Source: an uncultured Nitrososphaerota archaeon
GTDB lineage: Archaea; Thermoproteota; EX4484-205; JAAOZO01
DNA length: 64,000 nt
Assembly: GCA_964408285.1 (NCBI GenBank)
Contig: CAYOYV010000006.1
Coordinates: 31,635 to 95,634 of the forward strand
Direction: 5' to 3'
Part shown: piece by piece, positions 6,898 to 37,817 of the stretch
Position numbering within the stretch: the first letter of the stretch is position 1
Layout: every line of letters starts with the position of its first letter
Translations under genes and position numbers: made by a program
The notes under the pieces: model-generated
What the model was told of the DNA's origin: nothing
Seen by the model: the letters and a program-made list of their open reading frames with translations, nothing else
Databases searched by the model: none

Positions 6898-7172
6898 TCT
6901 CTGTTGGAAGAATATGCAAGAAATTGGCAGGAAGAGATTCCGGGCAGAGGTGCGTGATCATCGACGTATTGGACACAAACTTCATAATGATTACTGGCCC
7001 AAAAAAGATCACAGGAGTCAGAAGGAGAAAGGTGAACATGAATCATGTCTTGCCGCTTGGGAAATCAATAAGAGTGAGGAAGAATGCCTCGGACGATGCA
7101 GTTGCCTCTGCGCTGGAGCGGAGGAAGCTAATACCATTCATGAAGGGTGAGGATGTTGAACCTGCTGAATGA
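6879..7172 (+). CDS. rpl14e: 50S ribosomal protein L14e
   Basis: VGRICKKLAGRDSG, ITGPKKITGVRRRKVNMNHV. Confidence 0.95.
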   Translation: MAQLALISVGRICKKLAGRDSGQRCVIIDVLDTNFIMITGPKKITGVRRRKVNMNHVLPLGKSIRVRKNASDDAVASALERRKLIPFMKGEDVEPAE

Positions 7173-8160
7173 GCTGAGAAAACCTAGGAGGCTTGTCATA
7201 AGGGAAGAGTCAACGACATCTTGGGATTATGGCTGGAACCCGAATCTAAGACGATTGGATCAATTGGTGGACTCTGGCGTAATAGTCCTTGACAAACAGA
7301 GCGGCCCCACCAGTCATGATTTTGTGGCAACCCTGAAGAGACTCCTGAATCTCAAAAAAGCCGGTCACAGCGGGACCCTTGAGTGAATTCGGGGAAATCC
7401 TGGCGTGACTGGAGTACTAATCGCGCTTTCCGGAGCAGCCACAAACCTGGTCCCATACTTGCATAGGCTAGGAAAGGAATATGTCGGAGTTGGGGAGCTG
7501 CATTCCGACGTATCAAAATCCAAACTTCAGGAAGCGATGGGTATATTCATAGGGCAGATATTCCAAAGACCCCCTGTTAGGGCTTCGGTCAGCAGGAAGT
7601 TAAGGACAAGATCTGTCTTCTACTTTGACCTTTTGGAATACGAGGATAGACGATTTCTTTTCAGGGTTGGAACGGAAGCAGGTACATACATAAGGAAATT
7701 GATACATGACCTTGGGCTGTTGACTGGATCGGGAGCTCATATGGTTCAGCTTCGAAGGACTAGGGACGGCCCCTTCGGCGAGTCTCAATCACATGGGATG
7801 TGGAGCATCGCCTTGGCCCTTGAGATATATAGATCACGAAATGATGAGACCGAGCTAAGGAAAGTAATACTACCGATAGAATCGGCAATTGCTCTATATC
7901 CATCGATTTATATCAAGGACGGTGCAGTTTCTGCAGTGTGTCATGGCGCTAATCTCTCGATTGGTGGCGTCTCGTCATTTGAGGAACCTGTGGAAAAGGG
8001 AAACGTTGTTTGCGTGAAAACTCTCAAGGGCGAGCTAGTGGCAATGGCCAGGTCAGAGAAGGATTCTCATGGTCTGCTAAATGACAGAACTGGTCTAGCT
8101 GCAATCACCGAGAGGGTTCTAATGGATAGAGGGCTATATCCAAAAATGTGGAGACAATAG
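7153..8160 (+). CDS. cbf5: H/ACA pseudouridine synthase Cbf5, spliced: join(7153..7381,7397..8160), 330 aa
   Basis: DKQSGPTSH, GHSGTL|DPGVTGVL restored by removing a 15-nt intron; EAGTYIRKL and a PUA domain follow. Confidence 0.95.
7382..7396 (+). other. 15-nt BHB intron in cbf5 mRNA
   Basis: Outer helix CGGGA/UCCUG, central helix CCCU/GGGG, bulges UGA and AAA; cutting after the second bulge nucleotides gives GAU (catalytic Asp); contains an in-frame UGA. Confidence 0.92.
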
Positions 8161-33943: not shown

Positions 33944-35311
33944 ATGAGCATACTGATTGTGGATTCGAGGAAGCAGCTCTTCATCGACGATCGCTTTATC
34001 CAGTCATCCCAAGGAGTCGTTTTGTCGGTTAACGAAGCACGGAAATACCAAGAACCGGTCCTCATCGCGGACCGCCCTTGGGAAAGCATGTGCATAGGCG
34101 GCTATAGCACAGTGATGGAGGAGAACGGACTTTACCGCCTGTGGTATGAGGCCTATGCTTCAGACTATAGGGAGGATTATGATGCGAAGCTATGCTATGC
34201 GTTTTCATACGATGGCATTCATTGGGAAAAACCTGCTCTAGGGCAATCTGAATTTCAAGGCTCAAGGGACAACAACATTGTGTTTGACGACTGCCATAAT
34301 TTCGGCTATCATGGCGGAACTGTGTTTAAGGATCCAATAGCCAGCCCTGAGGAAAGATACAAGGTCCTCTACCAAGCCAGGGGAGGAACGCGATCGGATC
34401 AATCCAACGCCTGCATGCGAGGAATATACTCGAAAGACGGAATAAGATGGGTCAAGTACCCAGGCATTCTTGCAGATCACCTAAGCGATACTCAGACTGT
34501 TGTTCACTATGACGAGGATTCAGGCAGATACGTTGGTTACTTCCGAGTCTGGACAGAGAAGGGATATCGTGCCATAGGTCGCTCTGAGACGCCAGATTTC
34601 CTTTGTTGGCCCAGAGACCCAGAATTGATCTTGGCCCCGGATCAAAATGACCCTACAGACATCCACCTATACACGAACGGTTACAGATCCTATCGCGTGG
34701 CCCAAGATGCACATATCTTTGTGATCTCCAGCTTCCATGCGACAACAGATCTCGTTGATGTTCAGCTTGCCACAAGCCGTGATGGTATTTCGTGGCGTAG
34801 ACCTGATCGCCGCCCCCTCATACGCCTTGGAGAGGAAGGGACTTGGGACAGCGGGCAGATCTATGTAGGTGCCGGAACCATAGATAAAGGCAGTGAGCTC
34901 TGGGTCTATTACACCGGATTCAGACATGGACACGGGGAGAACAGGCCGGATGTCATAAGTTACGAGGGAAAAATAGGAATAGCGAAAATTCGAAAGGACG
35001 GGTTCATGTCAGCCGAAGCTGGACCTCAGGGTGGCTTTGTCATGACCCCCCTCCTGAAGTTCTCCGGCAGCCATCTGGAATTGAATTACGATGCCGGAAC
35101 AGAAGGAGAGGTTTCGGTTGAGCTGCTTGGCGAGGATCTCATTCCCATCAGGGCTTTCTCAGGGCCCGATTGTGATCCGCTTCACGGTGATTCAACCACC
35201 AAGACTGTGACATGGAAAGGTAATGACGACTTGGGCCATATTGCCGGAAGACCCACGCACCTCCGCTTCAATATGAGAGATGCCAAGCTCTTCGCGTTCC
35301 ACTTCTTCTGA
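33944..35311 (+). CDS. probable five-bladed beta-propeller glycoside hydrolase-like protein
   Basis: QLFIDD N-terminus, repeated S.DG..W Asp-box-like motifs (SYDGIHW, SKDGIRW, SRDGISW), R.DGF and a beta-sandwich-like C-terminus. Confidence 0.6.
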   Translation: MSILIVDSRKQLFIDDRFIQSSQGVVLSVNEARKYQEPVLIADRPWESMCIGGYSTVMEENGLYRLWYEAYASDYREDYDAKLCYAFSYDGIHWEKPALGQSEFQGSRDNNIVFDDCHNFGYHGGTVFKDPIASPEERYKVLYQARGGTRSDQSNACMRGIYSKDGIRWVKYPGILADHLSDTQTVVHYDEDSGRYVGYFRVWTEKGYRAIGRSETPDFLCWPRDPELILAPDQNDPTDIHLYTNGYRSYRVAQDAHIFVISSFHATTDLVDVQLATSRDGISWRRPDRRPLIRLGEEGTWDSGQIYVGAGTIDKGSELWVYYTGFRHGHGENRPDVISYEGKIGIAKIRKDGFMSAEAGPQGGFVMTPLLKFSGSHLELNYDAGTEGEVSVELLGEDLIPIRAFSGPDCDPLHGDSTTKTVTWKGNDDLGHIAGRPTHLRFNMRDAKLFAFHFF

Positions 35312-35325
35312 TCTTGCGTGCGGAC

Positions 35326-37151
35326 TCACTTCAGGTATCCCCAATAGGGTTCCTTCTGTCTCTTTATCTTGGTTATTTCCTCGATGGCATCCAACATGTC
35401 TTGCGTGGCGAACTGGGACAGGTTCGTCTTTAGGGAAATCGCATCTGAAGCCCTGATCTCAACGTACAATGTCTCTCCTTCCTGCACATTTCTTCCCATG
35501 ACGGCCTCCTTAATGGATATCGACACCTCATCCCCCTTCTTTGCCTCATTGACCGACTGATCCTGCAGCCTTATGGAGTCAATAGCTCCTATTCTTTCGC
35601 CACCTTCACTAATCAAGTTGGAACCTTGTCGCATCAATCCCTTTTCAACCCTTACCCCGAATATGGCTGGTTTGCTCCTCCTAAAGACAAAGCCTGGCAT
35701 TATGAACAGCTTGGCGGGCGTGACCAACTTTGAGAAGAGCTCTTCAGCTGTAGCCTTCTCATAGCTAGTCTTCCAGGAGAAGTATTCATCCATCAGGCCG
35801 TATATGACCTTACCCGTCATTATCCTGACTCCCAAGTCTCTTGCCGCCTCCTCTGCCTCCCCTGTTACGTCTACGTTGAACGCAATTATCACCCTCTGAG
35901 TCATGTCTCCGGATGCCGTTGAGGCGCCAATGACATCCTTCTTGGTTACAGGACCTATATCCGCCATCCTCACCTTGATCGCCTTCGATTGAAGCTCAGG
36001 GACAATCGCCTCAAGCGCCCCCAACGTATCGGCCTTCAGGATTATGCCTTGGATTTCCGTCTTGAACAGGATGGAGGACACCTCTTGCGACAATTCCTCA
36101 ATTGCTCTTCTCTGTTCCTCCAAAGTATTGCAGACTATTACGCTTGAGCCAGCCAGTGCGCCGGCTAGATCTGGGCCACTCAACTTTATTCCGCTGGAGG
36201 CCCTCATCTGTGCAACTGAATCAAACCTGTCCCTGGGGTCGCGTATTTCATCCAATGGCTTAGGAGAAAGAAGGGCCCGAACCTTTGTGACCGTTGGTCC
36301 GGTTAACGTTGTGAGTGCGATGGAATCGCCCACCTTGATGATGCCGTCATATACGATGACGTTTATCGTTGTGCCCAACCCAACATCCTCCGTTACCTCG
36401 AGGACTACGCCCTTGCCCCTGTTCGACTTTGTCTCCAAGGATTTCGTTTGGAAGGACTGAATCATTCCCGACATGACCGCGATCAGTTCCGCGATTCCCT
36501 CTCCCGTCTTAGCGCTGACAGGGACAACTGGATTCTTATCCTTGAAATCACTCAGAGAATAGAACAAATCCGTAGTTAGGCCAAGCTTGGATACCTGCCC
36601 TACGATATCATACAGCTTCTGCTCGAGCAATTTTCTTGTACCTGGTTCCTGCTCCTTGATTGCCTTTAGGAATGAAAGAGAACTGGACGGACGCCAACCT
36701 CTCGTGAGATCAATCTTGTTTGCCGCAATGACGAAAGGAGTCTTTCTTGACCTGAGTATCTCAATAGACTCTATGGTCTGGGGCATGACACCGGCCGTGA
36801 TGTCTATTACAAGGATCGCAAAGTCTGCTATTGATCCCCCCCGTTTTCTCAAATTCATGAACGCTTCATGACCAGGTGTGTCAATTACCAATAGCCCCCC
36901 GATTTTCAGCCTTGAAGCCACTTCAATTCCCTCTATCTGGCCCACGACATCAACCAATGTGTCTAGTGGAAGATATGAGGCCCCAACGTGCTGGGTTTGG
37001 GACGGTTTCTACCGCTATCCCCCCGGCTTCCCTTTTGGCCACTAAGGTGCCTCTTATCTTATCCAGAAGGGACGTCTTGCCATGGTCCACATAGTCCCCA
37101 GACATGCAAGGTATGACCTAGAACCACGACTATGGGTTCCCTTAGGCGCAA
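35326..37151 (-). CDS. infB: translation initiation factor aIF5B (IF2), spliced: complement(join(35326..36996,37016..37090,37113..37151)), 594 aa
   Basis: TTG start with GGGGGGTGA SD; the splice product reads MRLREPIVVVLGH|VDHGKTSLLDKIRGTLVAKREAGGI|TQHVGAS...IDTPGHE...NKID; exons 39+75+1671 nt = 595 codons. Confidence 0.95.
36997..37015 (-). other. 19-nt BHB intron 2 of aIF5B (G2 motif, GGI|TQH)
   Basis: GCGGUAGAAACCGUCCCAA; central helix GGGA/UCCC, bulges UAG and AAA, intron helix CGGU/ACCG, exon helix GGG/CCC. Confidence 0.92.
37091..37112 (-). other. 22-nt BHB intron 1 of aIF5B (G1 P-loop, GH|VDHGKT)
   Basis: ACCUUGCAUGUCUGGGGACUAU; central helix GGUC/GACU, bulges AUA and AUG, intron helix CCU/GGG, exon helix UCUA/UGGA plus CGUGG/CCAUG. 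Confidence 0.9.
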
Positions 37152-37192
37152 ATTATATCACCCCCCAAAACGGCCGAACTACGTCCGTCCGT

Positions 37193-37648
37193 TTAATAAA
37201 CGTATTCTGAAATGGGACTCTTCCAGTCCTGTATCTCGTCCTTCCTGAAAAGTAGGGAGATCTCCTTTGTTGCGATCTCAACCGAATCGGAGCCGTGAAT
37301 AAGGTTCTTTCCTGTGGATAGGGAATAATCTCCTCTGACCGTTCCAGGCTGTGCTTGCAGGAAATCGGTCGCACCGATCATATTCCTGACAACCTTCACA
37401 CAATCGGGTCCCTCCAGAATAAATGCTACTATCGGACCTGTCATCATGAATTCTATAAGTTCATTGAAGAATTGCTTTCCCCTATGTACTGAGTAGAATT
37501 CCTCAAGCATCTGTTTGGATGGTCTAGTCATCTTCAGCCCGATCATCCTAAATCCTTTGTCCTCGAATCTGCGTATTACCTCGCCGATGAGCCCCCTGTA
37601 AACACAGTTCGGCTTAAGCAGCACCAGTGTCCTTTCCTCTTGGACCAA
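37193..37648 (-). CDS. ndk: nucleoside diphosphate kinase
   Basis: ERTLVLLKP, PGTVRGDY, NLIHGSDS. Confidence 0.97.
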   Translation of the reverse strand: MVQEERTLVLLKPNCVYRGLIGEVIRRFEDKGFRMIGLKMTRPSKQMLEEFYSVHRGKQFFNELIEFMMTGPIVAFILEGPDCVKVVRNMIGATDFLQAQPGTVRGDYSLSTGKNLIHGSDSVEIATKEISLLFRKDEIQDWKSPISEYVY

Positions 37649-37817
37649 CCTTCATCACCCACTTCATTCGCCTAGGATTCCTGCCCAACTCTAAAGCATT
37701 TTTCCTGCACTTCTTGCTGCAGAACCACGACATGGTGCCATCATTTCTCACGTAAAGGGTACCACTTCCCGGCTCCATCTTCGAACCACAGAATGAGCAA
37801 TTCCTGAGAACAGGCAT
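37614..37817 (-). CDS. rpl24e: 50S ribosomal protein L24e
   Basis: CSFCG..MEPGSG..YVRNDG...FCSKKC...RNPRRMKW. Confidence 0.96.
   Translation of the reverse strand: MPVLRNCSFCGSKMEPGSGTLYVRNDGTMSWFCSKKCRKNALELGRNPRRMKWVMKVGPRGKDTGAA

Follow-up and report, generated by a model that had tools for sequence, protein, structure and literature searches.

We describe a very probable tRNA-type intron in the gene of an archaeal translation factor. The window analyzed here, 64,000 nt of contig CAYOYV010000006.1 from an uncultured Nitrososphaerota archaeon (GCA_964408285.1), encodes aIF5B on its minus strand (35326-37151), where the reading frame is broken twice by short inserts. The second of these, 19 nt at 37015..36997 (-), separates the Ile codon from the Thr codon in GGI|TQHVGA, and we consider it very likely to be a bulge–helix–bulge (BHB) intron of the aIF5B pre-mRNA, of the kind known from tRNA precursors. 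This reading draws on the structure of the insert and its exact register with the protein, on conservation and covariation among relatives, on the splicing enzyme genes of the same genome and on an unspliced RNA that does not code for the factor.

Structure and register of the 19-nt insert

Read as minus-strand RNA, the segment 36993..37024 contains a complete helix–bulge–helix–bulge–helix (hBHBh′) motif, whose outer helix, together with one strand (5′) of its central helix, is made of exon bases. The outer exon helix, H1 (GGG at 37024-37022 with CCC at 36995-36993, minus strand), is followed by a 4-bp central helix (GGGA, 37021-37018, with UCCC, 37002-36999), two 3-nt bulges on opposite strands (UAG, 37017-37015, and AAA, 36998-36996) and a 4-bp inner helix within the intron (CGGU, 37014-37011, with ACCG, 37006-37003) that is capped by the loop AGAA. 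When each bulge is cut behind its second nucleotide, exactly 19 nt are taken out, leaving GGG GGG AUA|ACC CAG, a phase 0 join that reads GGI|TQH. A preliminary description of this DNA had given the same minus-strand sequence and proposed the same strict BHB, each part of which is present. Its claim that the structure-predicted cuts fall on the boundary set by the protein motif (I|T, phase 0) also held, and this geometry is repeated in 34 further genomes with differing inserts. It had further called such agreement unlikely for a random insertion. BHB cores of seven pairs, of which no more than one is G-U, occur at 75,658 of ~2.55 × 10⁸ position-by-length combinations in the genome, equivalent to ~3 × 10⁻⁴ per fixed site, or ~6 × 10⁻⁴ when two equivalent registers are counted. 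It is this agreement of register, not fold energy, that carries the weight of the structural argument.

The protein defines the same boundaries. Exon 1 (37113..37151, minus strand) begins with TTG and comprises, by translation, 13 codons ending in ...VLGH. It is followed by intron 1 (22 nt, 37091..37112, minus strand), which also adopts a BHB and lies between GH and VDHGKT, within the codons of the G1 motif; in intron-less relatives, ...VLGHVD.GKT runs uninterrupted across the end of exon 1. The 25 codons of exon 2 (VDHGKTSLLDKIRGTLVAKREAGGI; 37016..37090, minus strand) encode VDHGKT...KREAGGI. Beyond the 19-nt insert (intron 2, 36997..37015, minus strand), exon 3 (35326..36996, minus strand) supplies 556 codons and the stop codon, beginning with TQHVGAS. 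Its Pfam domains are GTP_EFTU, GTP_EFTU_D2, IF-2 and GTP_EFTU_D4, and it aligns to residues 39-590 of PDB entry 1g7r_A (E = 7.7 × 10⁻¹³¹), with its first residue at T39 of that structure and at residue 50 of 5fg3_A. The residue aligned to T39 is presumably the G2/switch I threonine. Upstream, a Shine–Dalgarno-like element, GGGGGGTGAT (37157..37166, minus strand), was read from the sequence 5 nt before the start codon at 37151; we take it to be complementary to the 3′ end of 16S rRNA.

With both inserts taken out, a single frame of 1785 nt and 594 aa results in which GHVDHGKT and GGITQHVGA are intact. The 38 residues before the second junction and the 556 after it match the length (594) and the alignment start of the solved archaeal aIF5B 1g7r_A. 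Without splicing, all three frames are closed, and the unspliced RNA is unable to encode the aIF5B protein. The predicted spliced junction at intron 2 reads ...GGGGGGAUA|ACCCAG..., and intron-less orthologs from a family labeled Methanomethylicaceae (P0009, P0010, P0036 and P0039; 590-591 aa) carry REVGAMTQHIGASF without interruption. Their sequence equals what splicing is predicted to yield, and the orthologs indicate that the predicted product is real.

Same-site inserts in related genomes

Inserts of 17-33 nt occupy the intron 2 site in 35 genomes from at least three lineages of Thermoproteota. Within the window's own order, where the genomes compared include one labeled Brockarchaeota, eight of 24 aIF5B loci have an insert exactly at GGI|TQH (17-22 nt) and 16 have none. 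At GAM|TQH, a 27-nt insert is present in two of two loci, both from complete genomes, of a second family, f11, whose aIF5B protein is given the name Candidatus Methanosuratincola petrocarbonis or Methanomethylicaceae by its sources; genomes of this family and of f38 encode McrA. For the phylum at large, we used a sample of 401 genomes, from which 15 loci among 150 of the 396 matches were taken for their short open frames; G313, whose match begins at a contig end, was left out. Inserts of 22-33 nt were present at the site in 14 of these 15 loci, and inserts of 29-33 nt in 11 of the 12 loci nearest to P0098, a truncated protein labeled Nezhaarchaeales (families f36 and f29; the site could not be located in the remaining locus), fractions that do not measure prevalence given that both sets were picked for short frames or truncated annotation. 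None of five loci from other lineages (Nitrososphaeria, an uncultured archaeon, Thermoplasmata, Methanosarcinales and Helarchaeota) had an insert at this site.

The inserts differ in length and sequence while retaining the motif. Lengths of 17, 18, 19, 20, 22, 27, 29, 30 and 33 nt were found, covering all three classes modulo 3, and the seven core pairs are without exception standard ones in 34 of the 35 loci. An exon with GCCA in place of GGGA is matched by an intron whose 3′ end has UGGU or UGGC in place of UCCC or UCCU. Inner helices vary freely and still pair, as in CGGU/ACCG, CUCUC/GAGAG, CCACGGC/GCCGUGG and CCAUGCCAGC/GCUGGCAUGG. Covariation was counted in an alignment of 24 sequences and 12 pairs. 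Pairing was found in 96.7% of cells versus 28-47% with slid partners, a control that retains the relatedness of the sequences, and seven of the 12 pairs had changed on both sides. Four of five measures were reached by none of 500 shuffles and the number of pairs changed on both sides by 21 of 500, counts that are not probabilities because the sequences are related. Covariation is thus strong, and the BHB structure has been conserved through compensatory change. The comparative support from these 35 genomes is unusually strong.

In the window's family, inserts of 17-22 nt are found at the intron 1 site in six of six genomes, including two (L002 and L003) that lack intron 2, and in all six loci (L001-L006) the register defined by the protein gives standard pairs throughout H1 (3/3) and H2 (4/4). 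Outside this family, L059 (G072:C45:25648-25858, family f23), the fifteenth of the loci taken from the phylum sample, lacks intron 2 and has an insert of ~31 nt at the intron 1 site, GH|IDTGKT, whose pairing was judged by eye.

Splicing machinery and alternative explanations

The genome encodes the enzymes that such an intron would need. Two genes of the tRNA_int_endo family (PF01974) were identified, in frames that cover C4:48740-48997 and C8:13446-13700. Along its whole length, the 194-aa product of one is similar to the crenarchaeal chains 2cv8_A, 3p1z_B and 2zyz_B; these we take to be catalytic EndA subunits. The other, a divergent paralog of 217 aa, finds its best matches in 1a79_A and in the N-terminal half of the fused 5x89_A. 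The pair fits a predicted two-subunit EndA, a form of the enzyme that has been linked with mRNA and noncanonical introns in the accessible portions of two studies (PMC2738675; PMC5829648). RtcB, encoded at C15:34836-36143, is present in full length (profile positions 1-426 of 426 matched).

Introns elsewhere in the genome served as controls for the cut rule. ARAGORN called 21 tRNA genes in this 93.7% complete genome, 13 of them with introns of 13-16 nt. The 16-nt intron of tRNA-Ala(GGC) fits the rule exactly (7/7 pairs) and that of tRNA-Arg(CCG) fits with 6/7 pairs, while the other eleven calls fit only if their boundaries are shifted; many tRNA genes are probably interrupted in ways beyond what ARAGORN can model. 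A protein-coding control lies in the window itself, where cbf5 (7147-8160, plus strand) carries a 15-nt in-frame insert with a TGA stop (7382-7396). This insert has a perfect hBHBh′ core (GGA/UCC and CCCU/GGGG), its removal yields a 332-aa frame and the cut splits the catalytic Asp codon (GTLD|P) after its first letter, a boundary identical to that published for crenarchaeal cbf5 introns (Yokobori et al. 2009, PMC2738675). The accessible text of that paper reports the cbf5 intron for Desulfurococcales and Sulfolobales only, a range that the insert in the window would widen.

Taken together, these elements suggest the following pathway. The transcript would fold such that exon GGG GGGA pairs with intron UCCC and exon CCC, exposing two 3-nt bulges 4 bp apart. 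A two-subunit EndA would cut each bulge after its second nucleotide and RtcB would ligate the exons, restoring GGI|TQHVGA, with intron 2 probably released as a small circle. The 22-nt intron 1 would be removed as well, and only the doubly spliced mRNA would encode the 594-aa factor.

Several points weigh against this interpretation. That the RNA is spliced, its exons ligated and the intron circularized is deduced from DNA. Folding upheld the strict BHB of the preliminary description as an iso-energetic form (-15.9 kcal/mol) and not as the optimum: the minimum free energy structure from RNAfold (-16.0 kcal/mol) has a 3-bp central helix and a G-U pair, and this rival pair (probability 0.515) is as stable as the A-U pair of the strict form (0.475). 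Taken by itself, the fold energy lacks significance (z = -1.88) and is matched by 12 of 200 shuffles. The inner helix has only 4 bp in intron 2 of the window, and it has 2 bp or is not predicted in three of the first ten relatives (L013, L020 and L022); the central helix of a single locus, L069, contains an A-C mismatch. The spread is patchy, with at least four gains or losses of the intron label on an aIF5B tree of 30 rows (L001-L030, all kept), and well-supported branches force three of these changes; as the tree lacks a reliable root, gains and losses are indistinguishable on it. The way in which the phylum and P0098 loci were chosen, given above, belongs among these points. Finally, the whole genome was scanned for seven-pair BHB cores, and those that merge open frames on removal showed no excess over controls with cuts shifted by 1-3 nt (for example, 1539 versus 1449-1572; for inserts of at most 30 nt, 147 versus 127-165). 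As these counts match those of the controls, the frame-merging filter is uninformative, though true cases are among its output, and the scan gives no independent sign of widespread mRNA introns.

Among other accounts of the insert, removal or cutting by something other than EndA and RtcB, for example a cut that mainly destroys the mRNA, seems to us highly improbable. It has a precedent in yeast, where TSEN cleaves some mRNAs for decay without ligation, according to the accessible text of a recent review (PMC10485636), and the action of EndA on the aIF5B insert is itself a prediction. The geometry, however, is exactly that of an EndA substrate and common to the tRNA and cbf5 introns of the same genome, and the predicted ligation product equals the sequence of intron-less orthologs. 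A cut made for decay is further opposed by the single copy of aIF5B, which implies that a productive spliced mRNA must exist.

We give very little credence to translational recoding, in which the ribosome would shift frame or hop over the 19 nt of an unspliced RNA. The insert sits early in the mRNA and equals six codons plus one nucleotide, so that one +1 shift near its end could, in principle, bring the frames back together. No single shift, however, suits inserts that range from 17 to 33 nt across relatives. Among the first 24 insert loci, all 15 inserts of multiple-of-three length contain in-frame stop codons, which argues against read-through, and read-through would also lengthen by at least six residues a motif that intron-less orthologs keep unbroken. 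Hopping would require a repeat of the take-off codon AUA or AUG, whereas the inserts end in CAA, UAG, CAG or UAA. Recoding has, moreover, no need of the BHB geometry, and yet covariation preserves that geometry.

An assembly or sequencing error, or a decaying pseudogene that gathers insertions, is scarcely credible. The assembly consists of 46 contigs at the completeness stated above, and two frame-breaking inserts in one gene could raise such a suspicion. Against this, the identical stretch is found, with no indel or joint, in DNA contigs of four other runs from four studies, and 34 other genomes have an insert at the exact codon boundary with compensatory changes. The exons retain all motifs and domains of aIF5B, and the genome holds no second copy, its only other match (E = 1.9 × 10⁻⁴) being another GTPase-like frame. 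A self-splicing group I or II intron or another described RNA family was rejected, as a search of 35300-37700 against Rfam gave no matches (E ≤ 1) and the insert has 19 nt versus the hundreds of such introns.

Relation to known mRNA introns and possible origins

The BHB intron in cbf5 pre-mRNA of Crenarchaeota has reportedly been described by Watanabe in 2002. In the searchable literature, cbf5 and the HVO_1309 5′ untranslated region are the sole archaeal mRNAs known to be processed by this route (PMC7714728; PMC10485636), and a 2023 review (PMC10485636), which counts just these two as substrates spliced by the tRNA endonuclease, expects more. We found no report of an aIF5B intron in the openly searchable literature, though one may exist in subscription papers or supplements. 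For Brockarchaeota, the openly searchable literature covers tRNA introns only, and for Methanosuratincola introns we found nothing in it. The intron described here would add to the spliced archaeal mRNAs an essential, universal translation factor that is interrupted inside its GTPase motif codons.

The closest likeness is to the crenarchaeal cbf5 intron, which is also short, of BHB type and located inside a protein-coding frame, where it breaks into the codons for a motif that is catalytic or essential; both occur in hosts with a two-subunit EndA, and both are patchily distributed, with loss inferred for cbf5 (PMC2738675, accessible text). The aIF5B case differs in its host gene and in the presence of two introns in one gene. 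Its motif is a strict hBHBh′, whereas the cbf5 motif is described in the same source as often relaxed, and the lineages concerned are labeled Brockarchaeota, Methanomethylicaceae and Nezhaarchaeales instead of Desulfurococcales and Sulfolobales. With HVO_1309 of Haloferax volcanii, the aIF5B mRNA shares processing at a BHB by the tRNA splicing endonuclease (PMC7714728; PMC10485636), which in aIF5B is predicted. HVO_1309, by the available account, has its intron in the 5′ untranslated region and an alpha2 enzyme, whereas the aIF5B intron lies inside the coding frame and its removal is required for the protein. Archaeal tRNA BHB introns share the motif, the cut rule and the size range; unlike them, the aIF5B intron has no tRNA body, and half of its motif comes from protein-constrained codons.

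A more distant parallel exists in eukaryotes. The XBP1/HAC1 intron is removed by a protein endonuclease, and the exons are then joined. Like the predicted aIF5B intron, it is a short, frame-changing mRNA intron removed independently of the spliceosome by the IRE1/RtcB route (mentioned in PMC13149111). The endonuclease and the RNA motif differ, and a regulatory role for the aIF5B intron is hypothetical. One such role would be that of a conserved checkpoint, with the aIF5B introns being more than passive passengers, an idea that we consider unlikely; most ARAGORN-detected tRNAs of the genome have introns (13/21). If it were true, the capacity to start translation would be tied to the capacity to splice tRNAs, as the sole gene of this subunit-joining initiation GTPase would depend on EndA and RtcB to become translatable, and the system would be an archaeal counterpart of the IRE1/RtcB control of XBP1/HAC1. 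Another bold reading would have BHB introns home again and again, through reverse splicing, into the GGG...CCC site provided by the aIF5B codons.

Whatever their role, the introns have affected public annotation. Gene calls for intron-bearing aIF5B are truncated to 526-564 aa (P0001, with 549 aa, P0002, P0016, P0047 and P0098) and begin after or inside the intron, lacking the G1 motif. In whole lineages, the G1 motif of aIF5B thus escapes annotation pipelines.

The genome contains no other copy of intron 2. A 16-nt exact match to its 5′ exon–intron junction (C1:41194-41209) lies in an uninterrupted frame (...GGIAVVTG...) and was dismissed as coincidence, not a second intron. Some intron-less relatives (L010 and L015) still have GGGGGGAT..ACCCAG, exon sequence that would supply one half of the BHB. 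In L013, L020 and L022, the intron end TCCCAG adjoins the exon sequence ACCCAG in a manner resembling a tandem duplicate; this likeness may reflect the pairing of both with the G run, or a local duplication.
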